The translations under genes were made by a program, and so were the position numbers. Positions 1 through 45,782 of a stretch of 45,782 bases of DNA are shown here, piece after piece. This DNA is from a virus, in the UHGV virus genome UHGV-0242872; one strand, given 5' to 3'. Every line of letters starts with the position of its first letter. The stretch's first letter is position 1. The notes under the pieces were generated by a model. The model worked only from the letters and a program-made list of their open reading frames with translations, made no database searches and had not been told where the DNA came from.

Positions 1-151
1 GAATGTGTACGGCAACTGAGGCTGAAAGTGTTCATGTTGCAGGATTACGTGAGGAATATTCTGGAATAGTTGCCTTGCATGTTGGAATAATTTATTCTTG
101 ACATGTAAATCCGGGAGGCCCGGATTCCAACGTCCAGGGGACATACTGACT

Positions 152-31773: not shown

Positions 31774-31802
31774 TTGACTTTTACTAAGAAATGTGCTAAG
31801 CT
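31774..31802 (+). promoter_or_regulatory. strong extended -10 promoter TTGACT-N17-TGcTAAGCT driving structured RNA copy 1
   Basis: -35 at 31774-31779, TG at 31794-31795, -10 at 31797-31802. Confidence 0.6.
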
Positions 31803-31808
31803 CCACCT

Positions 31809-31915
31809 GAGCTTGTGAAGTATGAACAAGCGACCGCGGTGCGGCAGGAAACGGAGCGGTGCGTCAGCACTGAGTGTAGTGTCGCTGCCTGCATTCGGAA
31901 GGGCCATAATCTATT
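31809..31915 (+). ncRNA. structured RNA element, copy 1 (function unknown; candidate antitermination or regulatory RNA)
   Basis: about 107 nt starting at predicted TSS; paralogous to 45138-45245; hairpin GCUUGU-N9-ACAAGC; compensatory base-pair changes between copies; no ORF. Confidence 0.45.
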
Positions 31916-32003
31916 GTAAATCCCGTCTAAATAACCCAAGTCACTAATAATTAAAAGTTTCTATAGTTGCCGTAAGCAAGGTAGAGAGTACTTCACTCCG
32001 CTG

Positions 32004-32111: not shown

Positions 32112-32145
32112 TCACTTATCGAAACGAGACAGAGGAGTGAGGGTT

Positions 32146-32331
32146 ATGTTTAAGAAGGGTCAGTTGGTTAAAACTAAACGCGGCGGACAGTACGTAATAG
32201 TTACCCAGAATGAGGATGAATATAGTACCGCTGTAGACGTATGGGGTCTTGTACGAAAGAAACATGGTTACGCTTTCAGAGATAATTTAACACTCATCGG
32301 CAACAATTTTAAATTCAAAGGGGTGAAGTGA
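32146..32331 (+). CDS. hypothetical early protein (61 aa)
   Basis: ATG 32146 with AGAGGAG SD (track ORF opens on GTG 32137). Confidence 0.45.
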   Translation: MFKKGQLVKTKRGGQYVIVTQNEDEYSTAVDVWGLVRKKHGYAFRDNLTLIGNNFKFKGVK

Positions 32332-32564
32332 TGCAAATCATAATTACAGATAACACCGTTATCTACGAAGAAGATGGTGATACTCTCGAGAAAATAGGCG
32401 TAAATGTGGGTGATGTTTTCAATGTACTGGATTCCTGTGAGGATGGCTGGTGGATTAAGACAGGAAGATACACAATCCCGGTAACTAAGGCAGAAGCGAA
32501 GGTATACACAACGGCATCTAATCATGATGCTCGTGCCGACGACTCTGAGGGAGGTTGCCGTTAA
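32331..32564 (+). CDS. hypothetical early protein (77 aa)
   Basis: ATG 32331 overlaps upstream stop; N-terminus MQIIITD, motif GVNVGDVF. Confidence 0.45.
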   Translation: MQIIITDNTVIYEEDGDTLEKIGVNVGDVFNVLDSCEDGWWIKTGRYTIPVTKAEAKVYTTASNHDARADDSEGGCR

Positions 32565-32719
32565 TGAAAATTCTAATAACTGACCGCAGGCTTATAGATT
32601 TCGGTATCTCGGTAGGTGATGTTTTTCTGGCGTTCAGCAGCAACCATTATGGTTTTATGATTGAGTACAAAGGGTCATTATTGTTCGTGTATCGGGATGA
32701 ATGCGAGGTTCTGGTATGA
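32564..32719 (+). CDS. hypothetical early protein (51 aa), paralog of 32331-32564
   Basis: GAGGGAGG SD; MKILITD...GISVGDVF shares N-terminal pattern with upstream gene. Confidence 0.35.
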   Translation: MKILITDRRLIDFGISVGDVFLAFSSNHYGFMIEYKGSLLFVYRDECEVLV

Positions 32720-32877
32720 GAGAAGCATTCGAACGGTGGGCCATCGTCGAGGGTCTGCCGGTTAATAAGGGTTCGAAGAAAGAGTACCTGAACGTTAAGA
32801 CGCGTCTCGCGTGGCGGGCGTGGAAAGCTGGTGCGAATGTAATGGCTGGCGCATTTGAGAAGAGAGGCGATTTATGA
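32716..32877 (+). CDS. hypothetical early protein (53 aa)
   Basis: ATGA overlaps on both ends; below track cutoff. Confidence 0.35.
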   Translation: MREAFERWAIVEGLPVNKGSKKEYLNVKTRLAWRAWKAGANVMAGAFEKRGDL

Positions 32878-33059
32878 GCAAGTGGATTAAGTGTAGTGAG
32901 CGGATGCCGGAGCCTTATGAATACGTTCTTGTAACTGATTGTTTTGTTGGCTGTGAGGTTATGCGTGTTAATTCAGATGGCTACTGGGGGCCTGCAAAGA
33001 GTTTATATCACGGTGATATAACGCACTGGATGCCGTTACCTGAGCCGCCGGAGGTGTGA
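32874..33059 (+). CDS. hypothetical protein (DUF551-like)
   Basis: 61 aa; WIKCSERMPEPYEYVLV pattern. Confidence 0.45.
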   Translation: MSKWIKCSERMPEPYEYVLVTDCFVGCEVMRVNSDGYWGPAKSLYHGDITHWMPLPEPPEV

Positions 33060-33206
33060 TGTTCAATAGTTTGGGATTTTACTGAGTGACTTACGCTGCT
33101 ACACAGCAGCGTATCATTTTTCTCATTTTTGTTCTATTTCACCAAACGCAACAATCGAAGCGACTATTGCAGGAGATGCAACAATACAGGCACCAATAAA
33201 ATTTAC

Positions 33207-33235
33207 TTGCACGCTAAGATAGAATAGGCTACTAT
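33207..33235 (+). promoter_or_regulatory. sigma70-like promoter TTGCAC-N17-TACTAT
   Basis: palindrome AATAG-gcta-CTATT 33223-33236 overlaps the -10. Confidence 0.6.
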
Positions 33236-33245
33236 TCATTTACAC

Positions 33246-33269
33246 AAACGAGAGGAGAGACAGAGATGG
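33246..33269 (+). repeat. 24-nt exact repeat AAACGAGAGGAGAGACAGAGATGG (shared translation-initiation region), copy 1
   Basis: identical to 33676-33699; each copy contains the SD and ATG of an early gene. Confidence 0.8.
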
Positions 33270-33415
33270 TTACTTTGATGATTATGGAATTCGAAAATAG
33301 CGCAGCAACTTATCGTGAGATGTCTATGGTGCAGGCGTACCACCTGGCATCAAACGGCAACTTCTACAAGGCTCAAATTATCAATGAGTTCGGGGTAATT
33401 GACTATGAATTTTAG
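33266..33415 (+). CDS. hypothetical early protein (49 aa)
   Basis: GAGGAGAGA SD; below track cutoff. Confidence 0.35.
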   Translation: MVTLMIMEFENSAATYREMSMVQAYHLASNGNFYKAQIINEFGVIDYEF

Positions 33416-33677
33416 CAGCTACACCGTGACCGTTGATTTTGAGGGGCTGGAGTTGGCCCTCCCTAACAACTACCGGTATATAACTCGCGACCGTTTCGGG
33501 TTTATTCAGGGGTGGAGGAACAAACCGACAGACACTGAGTTCGGGATGTCAGGCGGAGAAGAGTTACCGATCACGTTCGGGCATCAGAGCAGTAATGCAG
33601 AACTTAAAACTGTGATTCGTAAGTATCGCCGCCGTGGTAATACGGGACTTATAGCTGTAACAGGCGCTGTTGAATAA
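33405..33677 (+). CDS. hypothetical early protein (90 aa)
   Basis: ATG 33405 inside track ORF that opens on TTG 33399. Confidence 0.45.
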   Translation: MNFSSYTVTVDFEGLELALPNNYRYITRDRFGFIQGWRNKPTDTEFGMSGGEELPITFGHQSSNAELKTVIRKYRRRGNTGLIAVTGAVE

Positions 33678-33699
33678 ACGAGAGGAGAGACAGAGATGG
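33676..33699 (+). repeat. 24-nt exact repeat, copy 2
   Basis: identical to 33246-33269. Confidence 0.8.
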
Positions 33700-34286
33700 G
33701 TAACAAAAACGAAGTATTCGAGTACCTGATTGACCAACTACGGCAGCAGCTACCAGTCGCGGATGTAATGGGTGAAATCAAACGGTGGAGTATTGACCGT
33801 AGTATCGCGGGTCGCGGTAACTATACCGATGAAGAAAACGCCGTAATCGATGCTTACATTGGACTGGAGCACAACCCGTACACGCAGCAGTGCGAAGACC
33901 TGGCGCACGAGGTGCAGTCACTTAAGAATCAGTTACGTGACGCGTCGGAGCTGGTGGCTGAGTTACAGAGCGAGTTACAACATCAGATTGACCTGGCGGC
34001 AGGCGTGTATAGATGGTCTACCGCGCATTTCGACGAGAAAGGTAAAGTCTTCAAGGTCGAGAGTGGGGTTAAGACAGAGCAATCCGGTTGCCGGAAGGAA
34101 GATACCCAGGGATGCGAGCATGATTGGGTGCTAGATGAAAAAGGGGACTACTTCATTTGCGCTAAATGCGGTAAGCAAGAATCGGAATTGAGCGATTGCC
34201 AACACGCTAATACCGTCGGTTTGCGCAAAGGCTTTGCGCCGGGTTTTACTAAAAAGTGTCTTGATTGCGGGGCTAAACTGAAATGA
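33696..34286 (+). CDS. hypothetical protein with C-terminal Cys-rich zinc-finger-like region
   Basis: 196 aa; CAKCGK...CLDCGAK; same 24-nt translation-initiation region as 33266. Confidence 0.5.
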   Translation: MGNKNEVFEYLIDQLRQQLPVADVMGEIKRWSIDRSIAGRGNYTDEENAVIDAYIGLEHNPYTQQCEDLAHEVQSLKNQLRDASELVAELQSELQHQIDLAAGVYRWSTAHFDEKGKVFKVESGVKTEQSGCRKEDTQGCEHDWVLDEKGDYFICAKCGKQESELSDCQHANTVGLRKGFAPGFTKKCLDCGAKLK

Positions 34287-34486
34287 CCAGCATCTTATTT
34301 ATCTGGGTACTGTCCGCAGGCCAGATGCAACTAGCGGCATCAGAAACGTTTTACTCGATGGAGGCGTGCCAGTCAGCGGCACGCGCCGCTGAGAACGCGC
34401 ACTTTCTGTTTCAGGGTGACAAGCCCAACGATTCAGAGGTACGCGCTATCTGCTCACCTAAGCGACTTGGAAAACAGGAGAAATAA
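34283..34486 (+). CDS. small secreted/membrane protein
   Basis: 67 aa with hydrophobic N-terminus; ATGA coupling. Confidence 0.4.
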   Translation: MTSILFIWVLSAGQMQLAASETFYSMEACQSAARAAENAHFLFQGDKPNDSEVRAICSPKRLGKQEK

Positions 34487-34487
34487 C

Positions 34488-34691
34488 ATGGTACAGAGAT
34501 ATTCTAAGTATGGGTCCGACAACCATTTCATTGACCGCCACGGGAAGTGGGTTAAGTTTGAGGACTACCAGAATCTTGACCTAAAGCTGTTGGAAGTTGA
34601 AGCTGAGTTACAGAAATACAAAGACCAGTACCCTGATTACGTCGAGTGCGCGAACTGTGGGTCGGTTACACATGTGGAGGGGGTGGAGTGA
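34488..34691 (+). CDS. hypothetical protein (67 aa)
   Basis: ATG 34488 with AGGAG SD; N-terminus MVQRY. Confidence 0.45.
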   Translation: MVQRYSKYGSDNHFIDRHGKWVKFEDYQNLDLKLLEVEAELQKYKDQYPDYVECANCGSVTHVEGVE

Positions 34692-34870
34692 TGGTGCAGA
34701 GATATGAAAACGACCATGGCGATATGTTTCAGGTCGCCGGGGGTAATTGGGTTCGCTACGAAGACTACGCGGAGCTGGCGCGTAAACTGCGCGAGCTTGC
34801 TAAGCAGGTAGTAAACAGTCCGTGCGACTGGAAGACGGATGAATTAGCGCGCGAGATTCTGGACCTATGA
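34691..34870 (+). CDS. hypothetical protein (59 aa), paralog of 34488-34691
   Basis: ATG 34691 overlaps upstream stop; shares MVQRY and WV(K/R)(F/Y)EDY motifs with upstream gene. Confidence 0.45.
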   Translation: MVQRYENDHGDMFQVAGGNWVRYEDYAELARKLRELAKQVVNSPCDWKTDELAREILDL

Positions 34871-35160
34871 GCCTTGCAACTGACATCCTGAAACGGAGCG
34901 GCCTTGCGCCGCTGTCGCCGAGAGCGAACACACGAATATACAAGCGCCGCCGTAATGCGCTGTACCCTGAGATTCAGGCCAGACGCAAAGCAGTCCGCGC
35001 CTGCGGATTCCAGAACGGGAAGGCTGTGAATCTCGGTGAGTTTAAAACAAAGGAACGTGCGGCTATCACTAATCGGTTATTTAATTACTGGAAATCGCTG
35101 GGTTATGAAGATATTCCGACGAAACCACAGAGACGACAATACATCTGGCGTCATAAATAA
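34867..35160 (+). CDS. hypothetical basic protein
   Basis: 97 aa Arg/Lys-rich; ATGA coupling. Confidence 0.45.
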   Translation: MSLATDILKRSGLAPLSPRANTRIYKRRRNALYPEIQARRKAVRACGFQNGKAVNLGEFKTKERAAITNRLFNYWKSLGYEDIPTKPQRRQYIWRHK

Positions 35161-35235
35161 ACCGTTATTAAGATAATTCCTAACCGTGCTATCCTCCAGT
35201 TACTGCATACTTAATACGCACCTGGAGGATTCATC

Positions 35236-35544
35236 TTGGATAAATTTACTGAAACAGTGACAGGCTGGCTTCTCGCTGCCGCGCTAGCCGGAGGGGTAAT
35301 CGGACTACGACAACATAAGTCCGCTATTTCCGGCCCTATCGACGGATTCTGCTTTATTGCAACTGGCTTCACTTGCGCCGTATTTGGCGCGCCTCTCGCC
35401 GCTCAATGGTTCGGTATTACCGGAGAGCGCGAGATAGCTGGCCTCGGATTCATCATCGCAATTCTCTGGATGCCCATCTATTCCCGTCTCTCCGGTATCG
35501 TCGCCGGAGAATACATCGCACGTCGAGGAGGCACAGATGAATGA
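35236..35544 (+). CDS. putative holin
   Basis: TTG start with GGAGG SD; three predicted TM helices; directly upstream of endolysin. Confidence 0.5.
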   Translation: MDKFTETVTGWLLAAALAGGVIGLRQHKSAISGPIDGFCFIATGFTCAVFGAPLAAQWFGITGEREIAGLGFIIAILWMPIYSRLSGIVAGEYIARRGGTDE

Positions 35545-35809
35545 ATTATTCTGGTTCGGCGGTATGCTGGCAATCGGAGGCACATCGCTGTTTAATGTAT
35601 ATCACCCCAGCGTTGACGACGGACTATTCGGCCGGGTGCTCTATATCCTGACTGCTATTGTCTGCGCCGCCGGATGTATCCACCTGTTACAGGGCAGCAT
35701 GTCACCAACGCTGCCCGAGACATTAATCACATTAGTTGCGCTGCGTCAGATTCGTCAGGCGTGGCTGTCGTACGGAGGACATAAGCGTGTCTCGAAACAT
35801 TTCAGATAA
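35537..35809 (+). CDS. membrane protein (second holin or antiholin candidate)
   Basis: 90 aa with two hydrophobic helices; overlaps holin end and endolysin start. Confidence 0.4.
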   Translation: MNELFWFGGMLAIGGTSLFNVYHPSVDDGLFGRVLYILTAIVCAAGCIHLLQGSMSPTLPETLITLVALRQIRQAWLSYGGHKRVSKHFR

Positions 35810-36272
35810 TGGATTGCATTTTACCGCCGCGTTCGAGGGATTCCGAGGAACTGCGTATCGCGCTACACCGAATGAGAAGTACCTGACTATTGGGTATGGA
35901 AGCTATGGCCCGCATGTTAAGGCGGGGCAGACCATCACTCCAGGACAAGGCCTCCTGTTACTTAATCGCGATATGGCTAAAGCCGTAGCTGCGGTTGATG
36001 CGGCAGCGCACCATTCACTGACACAGGCACAGTTCGATGCCGTGTGTGACCTGGTCTATAACGCGGGTGCTGGTGTGATTGCAGCTACTACCGGCACGGG
36101 TAAGGCCCTGCGCTCCGGTGACATCGCGACGCTGCGGGCTAAGCTGGCGCTGTTCATCAACCAGAACGGCAAACCGTTACTGGGCCTGCGCCGCCGTACC
36201 GCGGGTCGCCTGGCGCTGTTCGACGGTAAACCGTGGCAGGAGGCGGAGGCTATCGGGAGGGCTGTTAAATGA
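35787..36272 (+). CDS. endolysin (GH24 lysozyme-like)
   Basis: GTG 35787 with GGAGG SD; motifs FEGFRGTAY and TIGYG. Confidence 0.75.
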   Translation: MSRNISDNGLHFTAAFEGFRGTAYRATPNEKYLTIGYGSYGPHVKAGQTITPGQGLLLLNRDMAKAVAAVDAAAHHSLTQAQFDAVCDLVYNAGAGVIAATTGTGKALRSGDIATLRAKLALFINQNGKPLLGLRRRTAGRLALFDGKPWQEAEAIGRAVK

Positions 36273-36335
36273 TGGAAGAAAACTGGGACGTATATAAACT
36301 TACTCCCACGCTGCTTGTGCTTGCACCACCCGAAA

Positions 36336-36363
36336 CCCGGACCGCGAATCCGGGTTTTATTTT
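36336..36363 (+). terminator. intrinsic terminator
   Basis: CCCGGA-CCGCGAA-TCCGGG hairpin followed by TTTTATTTT. Confidence 0.7.
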
Positions 36364-36437
36364 ACCAATTGACACCTAAGACTAATCCGACGATACTTAA
36401 ATCACCTCCTGTTCCATCCCTCTGCTCTCCAGTTTTA

Positions 36438-36469
36438 TCCCGGCCCTGACCCAGCCGGGATTTTTTTTT
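36438..36469 (+). terminator. intrinsic terminator
   Basis: TCCCGGC-N9-GCCGGGA hairpin followed by a T9 run. Confidence 0.75.
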
Positions 36470-36491
36470 ATCTATTTTCGGTAATGACTAG

Positions 36492-36520
36492 TTGACTATT
36501 ACCCTCGACCCTATTATATT
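36492..36520 (+). promoter_or_regulatory. sigma70 promoter TTGACT-N17-TATATT
   Basis: consensus-like hexamers upstream of gene at 36554. Confidence 0.6.
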
Positions 36521-36553
36521 TACTCCATCGACAACGAGAACGGAGTAGAGAAG

Positions 36554-36751
36554 ATGAGTAACGTACCGACAATCGCAATAACCGAGGAACTTGAAGCCAA
36601 ATGTATCGCATCAGTTATAGGGAATGGTTCGGTGGAAAAACTACAGATGAGGGCCGCTGCGGGCTACATACGCAGGGCTAATAGTGCGATGAATGATTCC
36701 TTACGTAAACGTTACCTCATGAAAGCGTTAGAAATTCTGGAGAATAAGTAA
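36554..36751 (+). CDS. hypothetical protein (65 aa)
   Basis: GGAG SD; first gene after promoter. Confidence 0.45.
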   Translation: MSNVPTIAITEELEAKCIASVIGNGSVEKLQMRAAAGYIRRANSAMNDSLRKRYLMKALEILENK

Positions 36752-36900
36752 TGAAAATCACAGATATTGAGGCATTCAAAGACGCACAACTGATGGCACG
36801 TATCGCCGTTAGTAACCTTAGCAACAGCATTCCAGCGGACGCGTTCTGGTTCGCTGCGATGCAGACACTTAAAGCAGCATATGCAGGAGAGAAGAAATGA
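36751..36900 (+). CDS. hypothetical protein (49 aa)
   Basis: TAATG overlap upstream, ATGA overlap downstream; below track cutoff. Confidence 0.35.
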   Translation: MKITDIEAFKDAQLMARIAVSNLSNSIPADAFWFAAMQTLKAAYAGEKK

Positions 36901-37094
36901 AAGTTAAAGCAGCTAAAATTCTCTGGTTACCCGCCCTTGACTATGTGACAGAGGGTAAAGTGTATGACGTATACAACCCGAAAACTACTGGTTTTGGTTA
37001 TATAGTTGCCGATGACGGCTGTGATATTTACATAGACTTTGGTAGCGATGAAGGTGATGGTTTCCACGGCGTTAAATGGGAGATTGTCGAATGA
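36897..37094 (+). CDS. hypothetical protein (65 aa)
   Basis: ATGA coupled. Confidence 0.45.
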   Translation: MKVKAAKILWLPALDYVTEGKVYDVYNPKTTGFGYIVADDGCDIYIDFGSDEGDGFHGVKWEIVE

Positions 37095-37249
37095 GCGAAC
37101 AAACACCAATCAGCCAACCGTTACGAGTAGGCCGTAAAGTCAGTCACACCCCGTTCCCGACACGTGAAGAACTGATGAAACGTAACAGTTTCCCGGGGCC
37201 GGACAAGAACAAGTATCTCAATCGCATGTGGGGAGAGCGTAAAGAATGA
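37091..37249 (+). CDS. hypothetical protein (52 aa)
   Basis: ATGA overlaps on both ends; below track cutoff. Confidence 0.35.
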   Translation: MSEQTPISQPLRVGRKVSHTPFPTREELMKRNSFPGPDKNKYLNRMWGERKE

Positions 37250-37431
37250 CTGACCGCGAATATGAAAAGATGATGGTTGAGGCCGTTAACAGCGGCGTAG
37301 ACATCGGACACGTGATGCGCGTCCTGAATACTAAAATCGCGGTAGCCGAGCAAATGGTCGAGTCGCTTTACGAGACGCGCCGTGAACTGATTAACCGCTT
37401 CAACCTGAACAAAGGTGACACCAATGCCTAA
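37246..37431 (+). CDS. hypothetical protein (61 aa)
   Basis: ATGA coupled. Confidence 0.45.
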   Translation: MTDREYEKMMVEAVNSGVDIGHVMRVLNTKIAVAEQMVESLYETRRELINRFNLNKGDTNA

Positions 37432-37711
37432 AATCACAATCGCATCTCTCGAGCGCCGTATTCTGGTGCTTGAGTCGGAGAAACAGACGTTAGGCGGGCA
37501 ACTGTCGATTAACGGTGAGTTTCAGCTGGAGGCGTTCCGTATACTCCTCGGCGTTATGAAGCAGGAACCCAGCGCATACGCAGGAGTGTTCCTTGACGAG
37601 GAAGGTTCGCAGACACTAAGTTACTACGCTACCGAAGAAGAATTAGCGTTCGACGGCCCCGCGGTATCTATCCCGCTGTTCGATAACTGGATGGTGTACG
37701 ACTATGACTAA
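37424..37711 (+). CDS. hypothetical protein (95 aa)
   Basis: ATG 37424 with AGGTGA SD (track ORF opens on GTG 37415). Confidence 0.45.
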   Translation: MPKITIASLERRILVLESEKQTLGGQLSINGEFQLEAFRILLGVMKQEPSAYAGVFLDEEGSQTLSYYATEEELAFDGPAVSIPLFDNWMVYDYD

Positions 37712-37889
37712 AGCGCCTGAACCAGTAGTTATCGATGGCGTCCTGTGGAAGCCATACTCGGTTTACCACATCGACGCCGACGGGAAGAAGTTTAGCTTCT
37801 ACATTTTTGCAATTAGCCGTGAGCACGCCGCTTGTGTGGTTGACGATATTCGAGAAACGGCGTGGCTTGGTGATGAGATAGCGGGGTGA
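37704..37889 (+). CDS. hypothetical protein (61 aa)
   Basis: overlaps upstream stop. Confidence 0.45.
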   Translation: MTKAPEPVVIDGVLWKPYSVYHIDADGKKFSFYIFAISREHAACVVDDIRETAWLGDEIAG

Positions 37890-37893
37890 GAGT

Positions 37894-37977
37894 ATGAGTC
37901 TCGAGGTGGTTATCGGTCTGGTGGGTCTTAGTTACTTCATTGGGCTGTTGGTTGGGCTGTTGGTTGGGTTTCTGTGA
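37894..37977 (+). CDS. possible hydrophobic micro-peptide (27 aa)
   Basis: GGGGTGAG SD; contains tandem 12-nt repeat GGGCTGTTGGTT x2 encoding GLLVGLLVG. Confidence 0.25.
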   Translation: MSLEVVIGLVGLSYFIGLLVGLLVGFL

Positions 37978-37988
37978 GGTAAATACTA

Positions 37989-38159
37989 ATGTTCAGTGAC
38001 ATTAACGCGGCAATCGAAGAAGCAATCTGGCGTCGCTACAACGGCGAGCAACAACGGCATTTCTGCCTGGTGCAACGCGGTAACATGATTGCCGTAGTGC
38101 AGGACCGCGATAACAAATATCCGAATGCGATGTGGACAACGAGGAATTTTTTAGGATGA
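37989..38159 (+). CDS. hypothetical protein (56 aa)
   Basis: ATGA coupling to downstream gene; below track cutoff. Confidence 0.3.
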   Translation: MFSDINAAIEEAIWRRYNGEQQRHFCLVQRGNMIAVVQDRDNKYPNAMWTTRNFLG

Positions 38160-38392
38160 TTACCAGCATTCCGAACCTGATTAAAGAATTCGGCACGATG
38201 GCCGAGACATGCCGGCAAACCGGCATCAACGAAATGACGATTGCGAAGTACAGCAAAGACGTTGATTGCGAGCGCCACGTAATTTATAACAATCGTCTGA
38301 TGACACATGTTAAGACAAGCCCGGTGTTATTCACGCGCCGAGGTATCACTAAAACTGAGCAACGCATTGCTAAAGGGGAGAGTGGGGAATGA
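38156..38392 (+). CDS. hypothetical protein (78 aa)
   Basis: ATG 38156 inside track ORF 38132-38392. Confidence 0.4.
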   Translation: MITSIPNLIKEFGTMAETCRQTGINEMTIAKYSKDVDCERHVIYNNRLMTHVKTSPVLFTRRGITKTEQRIAKGESGE

Positions 38393-38571
38393 TTGAGATT
38401 TTGAGGGCTACGAATGTTGCTGGTGACCTGGTGTTTTGGCTGGCCTTTCTCGGTGTGCTGATAAAACAACCGACTCTGTTTAACAGTCTCCCTCGTTACC
38501 TGTGGTGGCCTATGTTTTTAGGCATGGGTGTATCAGGCGTGGCAGGCATCCTTTTGTGGTTTTTCAAATGA
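38389..38571 (+). CDS. small membrane protein
   Basis: 60 aa with two hydrophobic helices. Confidence 0.4.
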   Translation: MIEILRATNVAGDLVFWLAFLGVLIKQPTLFNSLPRYLWWPMFLGMGVSGVAGILLWFFK

Positions 38572-38672
38572 GACTACTAATCATCCCTAACGCCTGGGCC
38601 ATTCCCGTAGCCAACGACCATTACGGCGGCGACGGTAAAAGAGCGCAACGACACGGCCTATACAACTGATAC

Positions 38673-38697
38673 AAGCCCTCTACGGAGGGCTTTTCTG
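38673..38697 (+). terminator. intrinsic terminator
   Basis: AAGCCCTC-TACG-GAGGGCTT hairpin followed by TTCTGT. Confidence 0.65.
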
Positions 38698-38731
38698 TAC
38701 ATCCCGCCCAATCCCCTTATATAATCTATTT

Positions 38732-38750
38732 AGACGCGTAGGGCGCGTCT
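38732..38750. promoter_or_regulatory. perfect inverted repeat upstream of terS (candidate late-regulator site)
   Basis: AGACGCG-taggg-CGCGTCT, with TATAAT at 38720-38725 just upstream and no good -35. Confidence 0.3.
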
Positions 38751-38790
38751 GGTGCGCTCTGATGGTCAGACGCATATGCAAGGGGATTCT

Positions 38791-39300
38791 ATGAAGCTGA
38801 AACTTAAGCAGCCATCGCCAGAGGTGGTGCAAGCTGCACATGAAGAAGCTGTTAGCGCAAACCGTCGCCGTAAACAACCGCGCGGTAAACAGAGCCTTTA
38901 TCAATCATCCCGTAATTCCGCTGCGCTGTGGGACCCGGACTATTGCGACGAATTGATTCGTTTCTTTGACCGCGCGTCGTGGGAGCTTGTGCCAACGTCT
39001 AAGGGTGATGAACGCCCACTGATTCAGGATAAGCCGCCGTCACTGGCCCGCTTCGCCTTACACATCGGCGTAACTATCCCGATAATTAAGCTGTGGCTGC
39101 GCGAGATTCCCGCATTTGCAGAAGCCTGGGAGACAGCACAGGCGCTGGAAGAGGCATACTTCACTGAAACGGGGGCCGCGGGCATCTCCGCTACGTTCGC
39201 TGCCGCTAAGCTGGGCCTGAATAAAACAGTTGTCGCCGAAGAAGTACGCGACGAGCCAATCAGCGAAGTAACAATTAAGGTGGTGTCCGGTGAACGTTAA
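38791..39300 (+). CDS. terminase small subunit
   Basis: ATG 38791 with AAGGGGA SD; basic N-terminus; immediately precedes and overlaps terL. Confidence 0.55.
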   Translation: MKLKLKQPSPEVVQAAHEEAVSANRRRKQPRGKQSLYQSSRNSAALWDPDYCDELIRFFDRASWELVPTSKGDERPLIQDKPPSLARFALHIGVTIPIIKLWLREIPAFAEAWETAQALEEAYFTETGAAGISATFAAAKLGLNKTVVAEEVRDEPISEVTIKVVSGER

Positions 39301-40561
39301 TATCACGGCAACGGAGCCGCAAGGCGCGTTTCTCGGTATGCATTGCAAGTTTCCGGCATTCGTAGCTGGCTTCGGTACGGGTAAATCCGAAGTTATGTGC
39401 AACTCTGCACTACTCGACAGCATGGAAGGTGGTAGCGATTCTATCATCGCCATGTATGAGCCGACCTATGACCTGGTGCGCCTCATCCTTGCACCGCGTA
39501 TGGAAGAAAAGCTCACCGACTGGGGTATCCGGTACAAATACAACAAGTCTGACAACATAATCTATACGTCTTCCGGACAATTTGGGGATTTTGTTCTGCG
39601 TACACTTGATAATCCAGCAAGAATCGTTGGCTACGAATCGTTTCGTGCGAAAATCGACGAGTTGGACACCCTTAACATGGAGCACGCCGAGCACGCGTGG
39701 AACAAAGTCATCGCCCGTAACCGCCAGTTGCCGCGGACATATAAACCTATTACACCGAAACCTGCTAATACCGTTTCCGTGTTCACTACCCCGGAAGGAT
39801 TCCGTTTCGTACATGACCGCTGGGTAGTCAAAAAGAATCCAGGCTACGAGATGATTCAGGCGTCCACCCTGTCTAACCCGTTCCTGCCAGAAGATTATGT
39901 GCAGTCGTTACGCGACACATACCCAGGTCAGTTGATTGACGCCTACATCGACGGCAAGTTCGTAAACCTCACGTCCGGAACGGTATACTATGCTTACGAC
40001 CGCAGGAAAAACAGCAGTCGCGAAACAATCAATCCCGGCGAGACTCTGTATATTGGGCAGGACTTTAACGTAGGTCACATGGCGAGCACGGTTTACGTGC
40101 AACGCGGTAAGGTCTGGCACGCTGTTGCCGAGTTGGTTGATATGTTCGATACGCCTGACGTAGTGCGGGCCATAACTGAGCGATGGAAAAGTAAGGGCCA
40201 CTATATCGTTATGTACCCGGACGCCAGCGGCAAAAACCGTAAAAGCAACAACGCCAGTACCTCAGACATCGCTCAGTTACAGCAGGCCGGTTTCGAAGTA
40301 CGCGCCAAATCAACAAACCCGCCGGTTAAAGACCGCGTATCAGCAATGAACAAGGCGCTTGAATCTGGTATGGTCATGATTAATGAGCAGGCATGCCCGG
40401 TTACGGCGCGATGCCTTGAGCAACAGGCTTACGACAAGAACGGCGAACCGGATAAATCGGGTGGTGTGGACCACCAGAACGACGGGACCACATATCCTAT
40501 CGCGTATGAAATGCCGATTCGCAAACCAGTTATTAATGTCCCGGTGACTTTCGCACTTTAA
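39290..40561 (+). CDS. terminase large subunit
   Basis: 423 aa; Walker A GFGTGKS near N-terminus; GTG start overlapping terS end. Confidence 0.85.
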   Translation: MNVNITATEPQGAFLGMHCKFPAFVAGFGTGKSEVMCNSALLDSMEGGSDSIIAMYEPTYDLVRLILAPRMEEKLTDWGIRYKYNKSDNIIYTSSGQFGDFVLRTLDNPARIVGYESFRAKIDELDTLNMEHAEHAWNKVIARNRQLPRTYKPITPKPANTVSVFTTPEGFRFVHDRWVVKKNPGYEMIQASTLSNPFLPEDYVQSLRDTYPGQLIDAYIDGKFVNLTSGTVYYAYDRRKNSSRETINPGETLYIGQDFNVGHMASTVYVQRGKVWHAVAELVDMFDTPDVVRAITERWKSKGHYIVMYPDASGKNRKSNNASTSDIAQLQQAGFEVRAKSTNPPVKDRVSAMNKALESGMVMINEQACPVTARCLEQQAYDKNGEPDKSGGVDHQNDGTTYPIAYEMPIRKPVINVPVTFAL

Positions 40562-40573
40562 GAGGATTATTCA

Positions 40574-42046
40574 ATGTTAACTATGAACGGTCAGAATCAG
40601 GGTGTTAAGACAAAACACCGGGAATGGCTGCACCACTTCGATAAATGGCAGAAGGTGCGCCACGCGCTGGAAGGCGACCTTATCCGCTATCTGCGCAACG
40701 TTGGGAAGAATGAGCCGGACCCGACCTACGCGGCACAGCGCCAGGAAGAATACGAGAACGGCGCTATCTGTTACAACTTCACCAAGAGAACGCTGGCGGG
40801 GATGGTCGGCAGTGTCATGCGCAAAGACCCCGAGCAGATTATACCGCCTGAACTGGAGTACCTGTTACGTAACGCGGACGGTTCTGGTGTCGGGCTGTGG
40901 CAGCACGCACAGGATACGCTAATGGAGATTGATTCGGTGGGTCGTGGCGGGTTGCTGGTGGACGCCCCGGAGACTGCTGCCGCAACGGCAGCTGAACAGA
41001 ACGCAGGGTTATTAAACCCGGTCATCGCATTCTACACCGCAGAGAACATCATCAACTGGCGACTGACCCGCGTCGGTTCTGTTAACCGTGTGACAATGGT
41101 CGTGTTGCGTGAAGTGTGGGAATACTCAGAACCTGGAGCAGAGTTCGAAACTAAGTTCGGTGAACAGTACCGCGTCCTTGACCTGATTGATGGTCGCTAC
41201 CGCCAGCGCATTTACCGTTTCGACGCCGAGGGCGGCGCTCAGGGCGAAGTAATCGAAATCTTCCCGGAACTCGGCGAACAGTTACGCGGCAAAATCCCGT
41301 TCACGTTCATTGGTGCAAGCAACAACGATGCAACCATTGACGATGCACCTTTGCTGCCGTTGGCTGAGCTTAATATTGGGCATTTCCGCAACAGTGCAGA
41401 CAATGAGGAGTCCAGCTTCGTCGTAGGCCAGCCTACTCTGTTCATCGCCCCCGGTGAGAACATGAGCATGGAACAATGGAAAGAAGCCAACCCGCACGGA
41501 GTGCGTATGGGGTCACGTTCTGGCCATAACATCGGTTACGGCGGCAATGCGTTTCTGGTCCAGGCCGGTGAGAACAACCTAGCCAAGCAGAACATGCTGG
41601 ATAAAGAGAATCAGGCCATCCAGATTGGTGCGCAGCTTATCACCCCTACCCAGCAAATCACCGCTGAATCAGCCCGCCTGCAACGTGGTGCCGACACGTC
41701 CGTTATGGCGACAATTGCACGTAACGTAAGCATGGCGTATACCGATGCGCTAAAGTGGGTTGCGGGTATGCTTGGGCTTAGTGACGGCACTGAAATTGAG
41801 TTCAAACTGAACATGGAGTTCTTCCTGCAACCAATGACCGCCCAGGACCGCACTCAGTGGATGGCGGATATTAACGCGGGCCTGTTACCGGCTACCGCTT
41901 ACTATGCCGCGTTGCGTAAGGCGGGGGTAACTGACTGGACAGACGAGGACATTCAGAACGCTATCGAGGATGCGCCGCTGCCGGTGGGTGCGGTCACTCC
42001 GGTAGCAGGCGAAATCCCGCAGTCGGTGCAGCAACAGCAGGAGTAA
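40574..42046 (+). CDS. portal protein
   Basis: 490 aa immediately after terL, AGAGGA SD. Confidence 0.8.
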   Translation: MLTMNGQNQGVKTKHREWLHHFDKWQKVRHALEGDLIRYLRNVGKNEPDPTYAAQRQEEYENGAICYNFTKRTLAGMVGSVMRKDPEQIIPPELEYLLRNADGSGVGLWQHAQDTLMEIDSVGRGGLLVDAPETAAATAAEQNAGLLNPVIAFYTAENIINWRLTRVGSVNRVTMVVLREVWEYSEPGAEFETKFGEQYRVLDLIDGRYRQRIYRFDAEGGAQGEVIEIFPELGEQLRGKIPFTFIGASNNDATIDDAPLLPLAELNIGHFRNSADNEESSFVVGQPTLFIAPGENMSMEQWKEANPHGVRMGSRSGHNIGYGGNAFLVQAGENNLAKQNMLDKENQAIQIGAQLITPTQQITAESARLQRGADTSVMATIARNVSMAYTDALKWVAGMLGLSDGTEIEFKLNMEFFLQPMTAQDRTQWMADINAGLLPATAYYAALRKAGVTDWTDEDIQNAIEDAPLPVGAVTPVAGEIPQSVQQQQE

Positions 42047-42072
42047 AGAAAAAGGCCCCGTTATGGGGCCTT
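42047..42072. terminator. hairpin terminator (stronger on minus strand)
   Basis: AGGCCCC-GTTAT-GGGGCCT; U-tract lies on the minus-strand side. Confidence 0.55.
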
Positions 42073-42075
42073 AGC

Positions 42076-42249
42076 TTATGCGTCTCTACTCGCCAGATAA
42101 TCACAGCGGGCTATGGCTAAGTCTAAGCTACTGTATGCGCTATCTGTTTTAGCGTGGGTGAACCCCGAAATCATTACGTGGTACACGCCTTTATCGTTTA
42201 GAACCCAGTATTTACCATTTTCGTGCATTATGTCTTTTTCTTTGAACAT
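42076..42249 (-). CDS. hypothetical protein (57 aa)
   Basis: ATG 42249 with AGGAG SD; driven by minus-strand TTGCAG-N17-TACTAT promoter. Confidence 0.4.
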   Translation of the reverse strand: MFKEKDIMHENGKYWVLNDKGVYHVMISGFTHAKTDSAYSSLDLAIARCDYLASRDA

Positions 42250-42296
42250 TTTTCATCTCCTGTTTAAGTTAACTGAATAGTACCCTATTATATTGG
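42246..42296 (+). repeat. 51-nt direct repeat, copy 1 (promoter, operator and SD of a minus-strand small gene)
   Basis: 50/51 identical to 44977-45027. Confidence 0.8.
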
Positions 42297-42305
42297 TGTC
42301 TGCAA
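42277..42305 (-). promoter_or_regulatory. sigma70-like promoter TTGCAG-N17-TACTAT
   Basis: minus strand; palindrome AATAG-tacc-CTATT 42276-42289 overlaps the -10; part of 51-nt repeat. Confidence 0.5.
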
Positions 42306-42349
42306 ATATTATTTTTATGCGTTACACTGGCGATACTACAGGAGGGCAC

Positions 42350-44287
42350 ATGAGCTTACTTACATCCCTAATTAGCCACCAGATATGGCTGCAACGCACC
42401 GCATCCGGTGAAGTGAAAGACCTCACACCATTCATTCAGGAGATGCGGGATGAAATCAAACGGCAAGTGCTGTTATTCGGTGACGACGGTCGTAGCACCG
42501 CGCGACTGAATAAACTGTTACGCGACCTTGAAGAAGCACTGACCGGGCTTACAGGTGACTGGCAAACAAAGCTGACAGAAGACCTTAAGGAACTGGCGGC
42601 ATATGAGGCTGAGTGGAACGTAAAGACACTGACCGCCAACGTAGCTGCGGAATTTGTTACACCTACCGCTGAACAGGTGTGGGCTGCTGCCGAGTTTCAA
42701 CCGTTATCGTTGAGCGACAAGCCTGTTGACTTCACTAAGCTGATGTCAGGTTGGGGTGAAACCGAAGTCGCGCGCCTGGTAACGGGTGTTAAGATGGGCT
42801 TTGTTCAGGGTAAGACAACACGGCAGATTGTTACAGAAGTAGTCGGTAAAGGCGGGCTGGCTGACGTATCAGAGAAATACGCCGCTACCGTAATCCGCAC
42901 TGCGCTGTCTCACGTGTCCAACGAAGCCCGCAATGAAACATACCGCCAGAACGACGATATCATCGAGAAGTACGAATGGGTGTCAACGCTGGACAGCCGT
43001 ACCAGTACAACGTGTTTCACGGCTGAAACAGAATTAGCGCCCATCGCGGGGATGGACGCGGTAATGCGCGGACTCTATTCAGGAAAAATCTTTACCATCG
43101 AACTTTCCAACGGCGAGAAGTTCAGTGGCACCCCGAAACACCCTGTACTCACGCAATACGGATGGACTCCGCTTGATGAACTCGATCCAACTAAGCATGT
43201 CTTGTATACCACTGTTGACAAAGTGACTGTGCTCGAAACAGTGAAGAACATAAACATGCCAGCCAGAGCGGATTATATTTTTAATACGCTCGCTGATTTC
43301 CCCATCAGGAAAATGGTAAGCACGAGTCCCGCGGCAACAGATTTCTATGGCGATGGAGTGGGACTCAATGGCAAAATCGACATTGTACGGACCGATTGCA
43401 AACTGCGGAACTACGTCCACGCCAGCGGAATTAAACAATTCAAAAGCGAGGGTTTCAGTCTTATTCATAGCGCCGCTTTGCTGTCGGACGATAGCTCTGG
43501 CGATTTTCTCCTCCGGGGTGAATGTCCTGTGAGTGTGCCCGCGCTTAGCGAGGCCAAGTGTTTTGACCATAGAATAGAAAACTGTTTTGCTTACTTGGGT
43601 CCTTCTTATGCACTCAATAGGCGGAACGCCGGACTCGAACAATTCTATAGCCCTTTTTTGATTCAAAATGGTGTCGTTAGAAACCCAACCACGGGGTCGA
43701 TCATGCATGAGTCCGAGCTTCTTGAGAAATGTTGTTACCGTGGTGGTAGTGACGCCGTAATTCTTGGCTATGATGCTGGCGGGAGTGCCATCTCGGTACA
43801 AAGAACAAATATCATCCGCATAAGCGTCGAGTTTAGAACGTGCCATGTTTATACCCTCTCTAGTAGTCAAGGATATTATACAGCAGGTAGTGCGATAGTC
43901 AAGAATTGCAGGGCCAGAGACGGGATGACGTGGGAAATTGGTAAGGGGCCGATGCCCCCAGCCCATCCGAACTGCCGGTCGTGCACGGCTCCGGTAATCA
44001 GTTCCGAGTTCGACTTCCTCGATAAAGGCGCAAAACGCGCGGCTAAAGGCGCGGAAGGTGGCACTCAGGTAAGCGCAGACACCACTTACTACGAGTTCCT
44101 TAAACAACAACCGGCGTGGTTTCAGGACCAGGCGCTCGGCCCGGTGCGAGGTAAGATTTTCCGTAACAGCGGTATATCGCCGGAAGAGTTTCGCGTAATA
44201 TCTGTAGATGGTTTCGGGAATCCGCTCACGCTTAAGCAGATGGCGGAACTCGATAAACGTGTTGCTGATTATCTGAAAGGGGAATAA
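42350..44287 (+). CDS. head morphogenesis protein (Mu F / SPP1 gp7-like) interrupted by an in-frame intein
   Basis: ATG 42350 with AGGAGGG SD; exteins join to give DSRTSTT|CRARDGMTWEIGKGPMPPAHPNCRSC; precursor 645 aa, predicted mature 347 aa. Confidence 0.75.
   Translation: MSLLTSLISHQIWLQRTASGEVKDLTPFIQEMRDEIKRQVLLFGDDGRSTARLNKLLRDLEEALTGLTGDWQTKLTEDLKELAAYEAEWNVKTLTANVAAEFVTPTAEQVWAAAEFQPLSLSDKPVDFTKLMSGWGETEVARLVTGVKMGFVQGKTTRQIVTEVVGKGGLADVSEKYAATVIRTALSHVSNEARNETYRQNDDIIEKYEWVSTLDSRTSTTCFTAETELAPIAGMDAVMRGLYSGKIFTIELSNGEKFSGTPKHPVLTQYGWTPLDELDPTKHVLYTTVDKVTVLETVKNINMPARADYIFNTLADFPIRKMVSTSPAATDFYGDGVGLNGKIDIVRTDCKLRNYVHASGIKQFKSEGFSLIHSAALLSDDSSGDFLLRGECPVSVPALSEAKCFDHRIENCFAYLGPSYALNRRNAGLEQFYSPFLIQNGVVRNPTTGSIMHESELLEKCCYRGGSDAVILGYDAGGSAISVQRTNIIRISVEFRTCHVYTLSSSQGYYTAGSAIVKNCRARDGMTWEIGKGPMPPAHPNCRSCTAPVISSEFDFLDKGAKRAAKGAEGGTQVSADTTYYEFLKQQPAWFQDQALGPVRGKIFRNSGISPEEFRVISVDGFGNPLTLKQMAELDKRVADYLKGE
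43079..43846 (-). CDS. HTH plus DUF559/Vsr-like PD-(D/E)XK endonuclease encoded antisense inside the intein
   Basis: ATG 43846 with GAGAGGG SD; two HTH-like segments; endonuclease core YNVDFAIESHSIAIEICCRG...GWHVYVLH; track ORF extends to 44110. Confidence 0.6.
   Translation of the reverse strand: MARSKLDAYADDICSLYRDGTPASIIAKNYGVTTTTVTTFLKKLGLMHDRPRGWVSNDTILNQKRAIELFESGVPPIECIRRTQVSKTVFYSMVKTLGLAKRGHTHRTFTPEEKIARAIVRQQSGAMNKTETLAFELFNSAGVDVVPQFAIGPYNVDFAIESHSIAIEICCRGTRAYHFPDGEISERIKNIIRSGWHVYVLHCFEHSHFVNSGIQDMLSWIEFIKRSPSVLREYRVFRGATELLAVGKFDGKDFS
43875..43902 (-). promoter_or_regulatory. consensus sigma70 promoter TTGACT-N16-TATAAT inside the intein 3' end
   Basis: -35 at 43902-43897, -10 at 43880-43875 on minus strand, about 30 nt upstream of the antisense ATG. 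Confidence 0.6.
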
Positions 44288-44748: not shown

Positions 44749-44752
44749 TAAA

Positions 44753-44778
44753 AGGCCCCGTAAGGGGCCTTAGTTTTC
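44753..44778 (+). terminator. intrinsic terminator
   Basis: AGGCCCC-GTAA-GGGGCCT hairpin followed by TAGTTTTC. Confidence 0.7.
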
Positions 44779-44980
44779 AACGGAATCTTGTGTTTAAATC
44801 CTGCTCATGGACAACCCTCAGAACAGTGTCATAATCCCCGTATCTTCCAGGTTCAAATATATCTAATGCCTTGTAAGCAGACATTGCGTCAGGGAAAACC
44901 TGCAGAACCTTTTTAACCCGGCACAAGTCACCGTCGAACTCTTCATCGAACTCTTGAACTACTTCGCAAATTGCATACAT
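44777..44980 (-). CDS. hypothetical acidic protein (67 aa)
   Basis: ATG 44980 with AGGAGG SD; driven by minus-strand TTGCAC-N17-TACTAT promoter. Confidence 0.45.
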   Translation of the reverse strand: MYAICEVVQEFDEEFDGDLCRVKKVLQVFPDAMSAYKALDIFEPGRYGDYDTVLRVVHEQDLNTRFR

Positions 44981-45089: not shown

Positions 45090-45103
45090 ACTATTCGAAT
45101 AGT
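45090..45103. promoter_or_regulatory. perfect 14-bp palindrome ACTATTCGAATAGT abutting the -35 of the RNA copy 2 promoter
   Basis: same half-sites as the AATAG-N4-CTATT operator but everted. Confidence 0.35.
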
Positions 45104-45131
45104 TGACTTTTCACTAAAAATATGATAAGCT
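45103..45131 (+). promoter_or_regulatory. strong extended -10 promoter TTGACT-N17-TGaTAAGCT driving structured RNA copy 2
   Basis: -35 at 45103-45108, TG at 45123-45124, -10 at 45126-45131. Confidence 0.6.
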
Positions 45132-45137
45132 CCACCT

Positions 45138-45245
45138 GAGCTTGTGAAGTATGAACAAGCGACCGCGGCGCGGGCAGGTAACGGAGCGGGACGTAAGTCC
45201 TGAGTGTAGTTACGCTGACGCGTTCGGAAGGGCCATACTCTATTG
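45138..45245 (+). ncRNA. structured RNA element, copy 2
   Basis: first 43 nt identical to copy 1 from the -10 onward; inner stem GGAC-GUAA-GUCC replaces GUGC-GUCA-GCAC of copy 1. Confidence 0.45.
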
Positions 45246-45311
45246 CTTGTGTAAAAAGTAACTGGTTTACTGAGATTACGCCGTTTCTATGTTTAAATGA
45301 TAAGGACTAGC

Positions 45312-45339
45312 GCCCCGCTTTAAGGCGGGGCTTTACTTA
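45312..45339 (+). terminator. intrinsic terminator downstream of RNA copy 2
   Basis: GCCCCGC-TTTAAG-GCGGGGC hairpin followed by TTTACTTA. Confidence 0.65.
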
Positions 45340-45355: not shown

Positions 45356-45742
45356 ATGAATCTTAAAGCAACCGTCGTAGCAGGAGCATGTTTCATCATC
45401 CTGGCTTACACACACGGCATTTATCAGTACCGCAGCGGCTGGCACGAAGGCCGCGCTAATCTCGTTTCGCAGCAACAGCAGAAAGCGCAGGCTGAGTTAG
45501 CGAAGAAAACACAACGGCAGCAGCAGGACGAATCGAAGGCAGCCGCCGCTGACAACGAAGGCAAGACGAAATCAGAGGTGATTACCCGTGAAGTCGTTAA
45601 GTACATTAGAACGCCTGGTCGCAGCGTGTGCACTTTTGACCCTGAGCGCGTGCAGCTCAAGTCCCGCGCCGTCGCAAACGCCAATTCCATCCCCGGATAT
45701 GACAATGATGCAGCCGCCGTGCAAGCTGGCGCTGCCAAGTAG
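45356..45742 (+). CDS. i-spanin (Rz-like)
   Basis: AAAGGAG SD; N-terminal TM helix then Gln/Ala-rich periplasmic region; embedded +1 lipoprotein ORF. Confidence 0.6.
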   Translation: MNLKATVVAGACFIILAYTHGIYQYRSGWHEGRANLVSQQQQKAQAELAKKTQRQQQDESKAAAADNEGKTKSEVITREVVKYIRTPGRSVCTFDPERVQLKSRAVANANSIPGYDNDAAAVQAGAAK

Positions 45743-45782
45743 CGACGCCGATGAGGATTTGGCTATCGACGTTCAGAACGCC
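45588..45782 (+). CDS. o-spanin (Rz1-like lipoprotein), +1 frame inside Rz, partial at window end
   Basis: GTG 45588 with GAGG SD; lipobox LSAC; Pro-rich; no stop before window end. Confidence 0.5.
   Translation, partial: MKSLSTLERLVAACALLTLSACSSSPAPSQTPIPSPDMTMMQPPCKLALPSSDADEDLAIDVQNA

Follow-up and report, generated by a model that had tools for sequence, protein, structure and literature searches.

Host cell lysis genes lie at two sites of the phage DNA studied here, a stretch of 45,782 nt which is referred to as the window throughout (Table 1). The first site, at 35236-36272, carries two holin-family genes and an endolysin gene. The second site carries an i-spanin gene, starting at 45356, and an o-spanin gene which runs over the end of the window. 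Endolysin stop and i-spanin start are 9,084 nt apart, with approximately 20 annotated genes (as in the record of Escherichia phage fEg-Eco06) and at least three terminators in between. Among the genes separating the two sites are those for the terminase large subunit, the portal (DUF4055), a MuF-like head protein and an Ig-like decoration protein. The arrangement is not a contiguous cassette of the lambda type, in which holin, endolysin and spanin genes are adjacent within one transcription unit. A first-pass annotation of the same DNA, made from the letters alone, had already placed a holin, a second membrane protein and a GH24-like endolysin side by side at 35236-36272, with two strong terminators behind them and a spanin pair about 9 kb away, beyond the packaging and head genes and behind the second copy of a structured RNA. 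All of this is borne out by the domain matches, folding tests and distances reported here.

A megablast search with positions 35000-45782 matched 468 phage records, the best of them fEg-Eco06 (Kagunavirus, Guernseyvirinae) with 96% identity and 98% query cover. Because the end and the start of the window are contiguous in fEg-Eco06, and a terminal duplication is absent from the window, we read the 45,782 nt as a complete genome in circular permutation, so that the open reading frame (ORF) running off its end can be completed from base 1. We are highly confident, judging from the sequence, that this genome is that of a virulent Kagunavirus (Guernseyvirinae) siphophage of E. coli with the standard three-step lysis system of Gram-negative hosts, encoded at two sites. 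The fEg-Eco06 record annotates the same five lysis genes in the same relative places. They are labelled 'class II holin-like', 'class I holin-like' and 'endolysin' and, approximately 9 kb further on, 'putative spanin' and 'o-spanin', the latter two flanked by genes for a Hoc-like head decoration protein and for the scaffold.

Table 1. Lysis genes, RNA elements and transcription signals at the two lysis sites and at the first leader copy (window coordinates; promoters and terminators are predictions)
Feature	Position	Strand	Description
Promoter and leader RNA, copy 1	31774..31917	+	Repeat D4/D5; R1 132 bits; leader part 31803-31917
Hairpin (AUCCUCCAG...CUGGAGGAU)	35192..35230	+	3' arm holds the Shine-Dalgarno sequence of the first holin gene
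Holin-family gene 1	35236..35544	+	102 aa, TTG start; phrog_2359 holin, E 9e-30
Holin-family gene 2	35537..35809	+	90 aa; phrog_2508 holin, E 2e-33
Soluble GH24 endolysin gene	35787..36272	+	161 aa from GTG 35787; PF00959
Intrinsic terminator 1	36332..36364	+	10-bp stem (36332-36358) plus UUUUAUUUU; -14.4 kcal/mol, z -3.6
Intrinsic terminator 2	36437..36470	+	8-bp GC stem (36437-36461) plus U9; -13.8 kcal/mol, z -3.7
Bidirectional terminator hairpin	44752..44771		Closes the packaging/head unit; -16.8 kcal/mol, z -3.7
Extended -10 promoter, sigma-70 type	45103..45131	+	TTGACT-17-(TGa)TAAGCT; read from the sequence, predicted
Leader RNA, copy 2	45132..45246	+	5' hairpin, long irregular hairpin and invariant UUCGGAAGGGCC tail; R1 147 bits
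GC-rich hairpin plus UUUACUU, terminator-like	45312..45338	+	Stem 45312-45331; 17 nt before the i-spanin ATG
i-spanin gene	45356..45742	+	128 aa; N-terminal TMD, periplasmic domain with Cys92
o-spanin gene, first part	45588..45782	+	+1 frame, GTG start, Shine-Dalgarno AGAGGTGAT, signal peptide, lipobox LSAC, Cys22
o-spanin gene, last 22 codons and stop	1..69	+	ORF crosses the window junction; stop 67-69

At the first site, the two holin-family ORFs overlap each other and the endolysin gene. Transmembrane domains (TMDs) and signals of all lysis proteins were assigned with a Kyte-Doolittle hydropathy script. The first holin-family protein, which is homologous to HK578 gp55, shows three hydrophobic segments (approximately residues 6-24, 38-56 and 67-85) and a charged C-terminus. 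The second has one strong hydrophobic segment, one to two weaker ones, the latter by hand calculation, and a basic C-terminus; its homologue in phage Shelanagig is annotated as a class I holin with three TMDs. The published holin class labels for the two proteins disagree with the segment count for the first of them. Both ORFs show the features by which holins are recognised, i.e. small size, at least one TMD, a charged C-terminus and an endolysin gene as neighbour. Together they probably represent a holin/antiholin pair. The hairpin in front of the first holin gene has a minimum free energy of -18.8 kcal/mol (z -3.1), and none of 200 shuffled sequences was as stable. In Shelanagig and HK578 a hairpin plus U-run is found at the equivalent place before the first holin gene.

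The endolysin matches Pfam Phage_lysozyme (PF00959) with an E-value of 8e-26 and 91 bits against a cutoff of 22.3. Its GTG start lies behind GGAGGA and agrees with the annotations of fEg-Eco06 and Shelanagig, and initiation there is likely rather than at the TTG of a longer, 178-aa ORF. The lysozyme domain extends over most of the protein and a signal-anchor-release (SAR) element is lacking, as expected of a canonical GH24 phage lysozyme. Since the hydropathy script found neither hydrophobic segments nor an N-terminal signal anchor, the endolysin is predicted to be soluble and to depend on the holin, rather than being of the SAR type. Both predicted terminators behind the endolysin gene fold better than all of 200 shuffled sequences each. 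Neither was listed by the terminator scan tool, and the second has a 9-nt loop, the limit of the tool being 3-8 nt. A promoter-like sequence, TTGACT-17-TATATT, is present after the two terminators at 36492-36520.

At the second site, the i-spanin matches the PHROG Rz-like spanin family 2536 over its full length (E 5e-56). A single hydrophobic segment, residues 5-23 (KD 1.59), is followed by a polar and charged remainder, which corresponds to the i-spanin pattern of one N-terminal TMD and a periplasmic C-terminal domain. The o-spanin gene was completed across the circular junction, where the stop that the first-pass annotation had expected beyond the window end was recovered. The complete o-spanin has 87 aa, its Shine-Dalgarno sequence (AGAGGTGAT) is perfect, and its N-terminus reads MKSLSTLERLVAACALLTLSAC before the predicted cleavage site and SSSPAPSQTPIPSP after it. 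The lipobox LSAC, together with Ser rather than Asp at position +2, constitutes a predicted outer-membrane sorting signal, as judged by regular expression and hydropathy only. Cysteines are found at positions 14, 22, 45 and 67. GTG start, frame, Shine-Dalgarno sequence and lipobox Cys are kept in relatives, and so is the C-terminus ...YVRNILE. In the curated annotation of Shelanagig the o-spanin gene likewise begins at an offset of 232 nt within the i-spanin gene, and its product is also 87 aa long. Of the two PHROG spanin families that the o-spanin matches, 1267 is of the full-length type, and 5672 is a family of 47 aa derived from shortened annotations. Automated annotation thus shortens this gene: the fEg-Eco06 GenBank record and PHROG 5672 both start at an internal Met, and signal peptide and lipobox are therefore lost. 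The o-spanin gene overlaps the i-spanin gene by 155 nt and runs 109 nt beyond the i-spanin stop. The architecture is overlapped, not embedded. Of the earlier description as an Rz/Rz1-like pair with an embedded +1 lipoprotein, TMD, +1 reading frame and lipobox LSAC were found as described, and the embedding has to be corrected to an overlap. Neither the lipoprotein signal nor the TM topology, whose absence would have spoken against a spanin pair at 45356, is missing.

Kongari et al. (2018) defined a 'Jersey' family of overlapped spanins comprising Jersey, SETP3, K1G, K1H, K1ind1-3, HK578, SSL-2009a and SO-1 (PMC6139136). The overlap was given as 155 bp in phage Jersey, and Cys45 and Cys67 of the o-spanin as conserved (PMC6139136). 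The pair in the window likewise has overlapped genes, an overlap of 155 nt and both cysteines. It also shares with the Jersey family and Guernseyvirinae the 128-aa i-spanin, the 87-aa o-spanin in the +1 frame, the lipobox and the site between head-decoration and scaffold genes. A difference of substance is not seen; the lipobox is LSAC here and LASC, LTSC, LNGC or LSGC in relatives. By these sequence features the spanin pair belongs to the published Jersey overlapped family, and disruption of the outer membrane is its predicted function.

The separation of holin and endolysin genes from spanin genes is, as judged by genome comparison, a conserved and published layout of Guernseyvirinae and Dhillonvirus, and is already known. 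It is spelled out for Schulenberg, a Guernseyvirinae-like phage (PMC6763661), and the corresponding genes are ORF66-68 and ORF7-8 in Golestan (PMC7203180) and Gp_063-065 and Gp_009-010 in SeF1 (PMC9409062). In Shelanagig, a Jerseyvirus, holin and endolysin genes are located at 39.4-40.4 kb and spanin genes at 6.0-6.5 kb. In the Dhillonvirus HK578, the holin and endolysin genes occupy 40.6-41.6 kb, and the spanin gene is found at 4.6-4.9 kb. The two holins, the endolysin and the spanin of Dhillonvirus HK578, SSL-2009a and Sodalis phage SO-1 are homologous to those described here, and the spanin is likewise set apart, between head-morphogenesis and scaffold genes. As HK578 shares homologous genes in the split layout, the split is, on this comparison, older than the subfamily Guernseyvirinae. 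The HK578 group differs in that the spanin gene overlaps and directly follows the head-morphogenesis gene and is then followed by terminators, with no promoter-leader module in a search with the covariance model R1 (see below). Klebsiella phage KpnBHU6 (PV189480) encodes an i-spanin which is 38% identical to the one in the window, but its spanin gene is found directly after the GH24 endolysin gene, i.e. in the canonical cassette order. One spanin lineage therefore occurs in both canonical and split layouts.

Phage lambda, with S-R-Rz/Rz1 under the control of pR'/Q, uses the same three functional steps and the same protein classes, and has a hairpin/terminator just upstream of the holin gene, as found here. 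In lambda a single late transcript covers the four lysis genes side by side, with Rz1 lying entirely within Rz, whereas the spanins described here are encoded 9 kb away and overlap. A search of the small ORFs between 32137 and 35160 and between 36554 and 38571 did not reveal a Q homologue. In phage T7 (3.5, 17.5, 18.5/18.7), spanin genes are not beside the holin or the endolysin gene. The lysis genes of T4 (t, e, pseT.3/pseT.2) are dispersed as well, with the spanins not beside holin or endolysin (PMC6139136). T4 differs from the phage described here in that its spanins are of separated architecture and unrelated in sequence, and in that its holin and endolysin genes are unlinked, those in the window being adjacent.

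Promoters and terminators were predicted from consensus sequences and folding. The packaging/head unit is closed by a bidirectional terminator, which is followed by an extended -10 promoter, the structured leader, a terminator-like hairpin and the spanin genes (Table 1). The promoter is kept as TAGACT-17-(TGt)TACGCT in Jerseyviruses. The stem of the hairpin in front of the i-spanin gene covaries among relatives, and its Jerseyvirus versions are without a U-tract. 3' of the spanins, the rightward genes continue with scaffold and major capsid genes, a terminator at 1922-1941, head-tail and tail genes and a bidirectional terminator at 6307-6326. Since promoter, leader and hairpin precede the spanins, and scaffold, capsid and tail genes then follow, the predicted signals support the view that the spanins are the first coding unit of a scaffold-capsid-tail operon and form a transcription unit separate from holin and endolysin. 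The holin and endolysin genes end a different rightward unit, which is closed by the two terminators. Both operons have internal terminators (33092-33113, 36332-36470, 1922-1941). An operator-like palindrome, AATAGTnnnCTATTATA, overlaps the -10 element of approximately nine other promoter-like sites and is absent from the leader promoters.

The leader was studied with a covariance model, R1, built from Kagunavirus variants. R1 finds exactly two copies in the window and detects the Jerseyvirus versions with E-values of 1e-8 to 1e-9. The distance from the leader to the i-spanin ATG downstream of it is 110-121 nt at all loci examined in Kagunavirus and Jerseyvirus. Promoter and leader of copy 1 are 85-89% identical to those of copy 2 and precede the rightward genes of which holin and endolysin are the last. 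Most relatives lack copy 1, and in the closest of them, fEg-Eco06, its site is filled by another sequence; by this comparison, copy 1 is a mosaic replacement. Across 180 phage records the leader is 95-99% identical, whereas identity of the adjoining i-spanin protein drops to 62-79% in many of the Salmonella relatives. Before its spanin genes, a Cornellvirus-like relative carries a promoter and a structured leader of its own; with an R1 score below significance, this relative was left out of the family.

A plain MAFFT alignment of Kagunavirus and Jerseyvirus leaders gave a poor RNAalifold consensus with misaligned stems, and a model-guided alignment was used instead. This alignment comprises 19 distinct sequences; pairing extends to 96.7% of its cells, and compensatory change is seen in 14 of 29 pairs, counts which come from an alignment fitted to R1 and which the fit favours. 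Slid controls of the alignment reach pairing of only 28-38%. In 500 shuffles the observed values were never attained on four of five measures; on the fifth, the count of further pair types, 72 shuffles attained them. According to this modelling, the 115-nt leader is a real structured RNA. Rfam gave no match at 45132-45246 or 31803-31917, neither at the gathering score nor at E-values up to 1. Elsewhere in the window Rfam matches int-alpA at 8820-8884 and, below threshold, intrinsic terminator 2. When 185,579 bacterial genomes were scanned for the leader pattern, four matches were obtained: three were chance hits in GC-rich metagenome-assembled genomes (MAGs) without a model match, and one was a 738-bp, Jerseyvirus-like scaffold resembling a contaminant. 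Since only chance matches and this scaffold were obtained, the leader appears to be confined to these phages.

The leader resembles in outline the putL and putR sites of phage HK022, which consist of two stem-loops, are promoter-proximal and are present in two copies (PMC9378689). Both elements are promoter-proximal, have two stem-loops, occur twice and head long operons with internal terminators, but the leader described here measures approximately 115 nt and put approximately 70 nt. Homology of the two was rejected: with filters off, R1 detected nothing at the put regions in the whole HK022 genome. Its sole weak match there, of 13.9 bits, covers the small 5' hairpin alone and falls into the Q-S interval.

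Several readings of the split and of the signals in front of the spanins were weighed. One is that the lysis genes are truly adjacent and were separated only by linearisation or assembly. In favour of such an artefact, the window is a permuted complete genome whose end cuts the o-spanin ORF. On the circle, however, the two sites are 9.1 kb apart in one direction and approximately 36 kb in the other, the window is without terminal duplication, and gene order is identical in the independently sequenced genomes of fEg-Eco06, Shelanagig and HK578. Synteny across independent genomes refutes the artefact, and we regard it as next to impossible. A further proposal builds on the separate late control of spanin expression suggested in the first-pass annotation: the spanins would be placed apart so that their late control could differ, in timing or in regulator, from the control of holin and endolysin. 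What holds of this proposal is the separate transcription unit: terminators isolate the holin-endolysin unit and the head unit, and the spanins have a promoter, leader and hairpin of their own, are co-oriented with the structural genes and are preceded by a leader promoter that lacks the palindrome AATAGTnnnCTATTATA. A distinct timing or regulator does not follow from the comparisons. The same promoter-leader module, as copy 1, is also located upstream of the genes ending in holin and endolysin. The only published time course of a relative, that of K1B4, places lysozyme and structural genes both in one broad 'middle' class, a coarse classification in which spanins are not reported (PMC12645636). 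Moreover, the homologous spanin of HK578 is the last gene of the packaging/head operon and has no leader, and in the established model the holin sets the timing of lysis, which leaves a distinct timing of the spanins without an obvious role. Altogether, control distinct in time or regulator seems doubtful to us, even though the spanins are probably transcribed with the structural genes and apart from holin and endolysin.

The module of promoter, leader and hairpin might alternatively act as a cis-acting RNA switch, be it a put-like processive antiterminator or a 5'-UTR regulator, which licenses either RNA polymerase or the mRNA for expression of the spanin/structural operon, with a second copy coupling the holin-endolysin unit to the same signal. 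Such a role would be in line with a structure backed by covariation, although the pair counts stem from a model-fitted alignment, and with a leader which begins directly at the extended -10 promoter, precedes a hairpin and is conserved next to a diverging i-spanin. The internal terminators within both operons and the outline shared with HK022 putL and putR (PMC9378689) point in the same direction. Against these stand the failure of R1 to see any likeness at the HK022 put sites, the lack of an Rfam family, the Jerseyvirus hairpin without U-tract, which shows that a terminator is not a constant partner of the leader, and the fact that most relatives, the closest one among them, have no copy 1. 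The small ORFs did not yield a regulator protein either. Pfam and PHROG searches of those at 32137-35160 and 36554-38571 revealed no Q-, N- or Gp2-like regulator; Pfam gave a weak NinH match only, and PHROG gave families of unassigned function plus a weak match to a Gp5.9-like RecBCD inhibitor (E 4e-4). A PDB sequence search returned nothing for a 61-aa ORF, labelled 'RNA polymerase inhibitor' in fEg-Eco06, or for a basic 97-aa ORF preceding the holin genes. On balance we consider an RNA switch unlikely.

The gene products described here fit the accepted three-step model of lysis. The holin, together with its putative antiholin partner, would set the time of lysis, permeabilise the membrane and give the endolysin access to the wall, which the soluble enzyme would then degrade. 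The spanin complex would be pre-assembled across the periplasm and restrained by intact peptidoglycan, and would disrupt the outer membrane thereafter. All that this model asks of the spanins is that they are in place before the holin fires, and because of this their co-transcription with the virion genes would be enough and co-transcription with holin and endolysin would be unnecessary. The split fits this accepted view and carries in itself little biological weight, being the normal layout in well-sampled coliphages, among them therapeutic candidates, and in salmonella phages. For the engineering of lysis in these phages it means that two sites have to be examined.

The leader is the only possibly new element at these sites; neither in Rfam nor in the literature searched is there a description of it. 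That it represents an undescribed class of cis-acting phage RNA, either a put-like, protein-independent antiterminator or a late-operon 5'-UTR switch, is a tentative proposal to which we give rather little credence at present. If it were true, the leader would coordinate the spanins with the virion genes and, in phages carrying two copies, both halves of the lysis system. As a candidate element of late-gene control, the leader before the spanin/structural operon merits a study of its own.

The leader RNA that precedes the spanin genes is present in two copies in the window, and its Kagunavirus and Jerseyvirus versions show strong covariation when compared. Rfam contains no matching family, and the RNA does not resemble the HK022 put antiterminator RNAs. 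Copy 1 is missing in the closest relative, the Kagunavirus fEg-Eco06. A different promoter and structured leader lie 5' of the spanin genes in the Cornellvirus-like phages L047 (2180-2480) and L048 (2170-2420). These leaders score under significance with the covariance model of the window's RNA and have in common with it only short motifs, namely AUAGUCUAUU and a long hairpin with a GUAA cap.

Coordinates of the features discussed
Feature	Position	Strand	Remark
Int-alpA RNA match (Rfam)	8820-8884	+	36.6 bits vs gathering 35.8
Extended -10 promoters of the leader RNA	31774-31802, 45103-45131
Leader RNA, copies 1 and 2 (~115 nt)	31803-31917, 45132-45246		each directly 3' of an extended -10 promoter
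Basic Arg-rich ORF, 97 aa, phrog_9632	34867-35160		immediately 5' of holin genes
9-bp hairpin	35192-35230		sequesters Shine-Dalgarno of TTG-start holin gene
MuF-like minor head protein gene	42293-44287		~300 aa longer than Shelanagig homologue
17-nt direct repeat GTTGGAATAAnnTATTC	45080-45096, 81-97
Palindromic motif AATAGTnnnCTATTATA	8772, 42276, 45007	+	overlaps -10 of promoter-like sites
AATAGTnnnCTATTATA, continued	21760, 25717, 28315, 32096, 33220	-	as above; the motif also occurs at further sites

The cassette of promoter, leader and spanin genes is flanked by the two copies of GTTGGAATAAnnTATTC (0.07 occurrences expected), and a TTGAC -35-like element lies 3' of both, at a distance of 6 nt from the copy at 45080-45096 and immediately adjoining the copy at 81-97. 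Possible readings of the pair are a regulator site and a vestige of cassette insertion. The palindrome AATAGTnnnCTATTATA matches ten times in the window (0.16 expected) and is not present in either leader promoter; it has the look of a phage repressor's operator, e.g. that of the Cro-like protein.

The GenBank record of fEg-Eco06 begins the o-spanin (L001 12250-12396, corresponding to the window from 45705 on) with an internal ATG, and the protein as annotated carries neither signal peptide nor lipobox. Models truncated in the same way seem to underlie PHROG 5672 (47 aa). The fEg-Eco06 annotation also places an inserted intein in the MuF-like minor head protein, and the window's version of this protein gives a weak Intein_splicing match under the Pfam cutoff. 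The int-alpA match lies just 3' of a promoter-like repeat (8766-8804) and 5' of the tail assembly chaperone genes; neither integrase nor alpA is found nearby, and the phage is virulent.

Upstream of the holin genes, the 97-aa ORF occupies the same position as Q in lambdoid phages, and searches of Pfam and PDB sequences gave no match to it. Shelanagig (a Jerseyvirus) and HK578 (a Dhillonvirus) have a hairpin and U-run at the position equivalent to the window's 9-bp hairpin. With a hairpin thus standing at the holin gene in the window phage, Shelanagig and HK578, holin expression seems to be damped just 5' of the gene in these phages.
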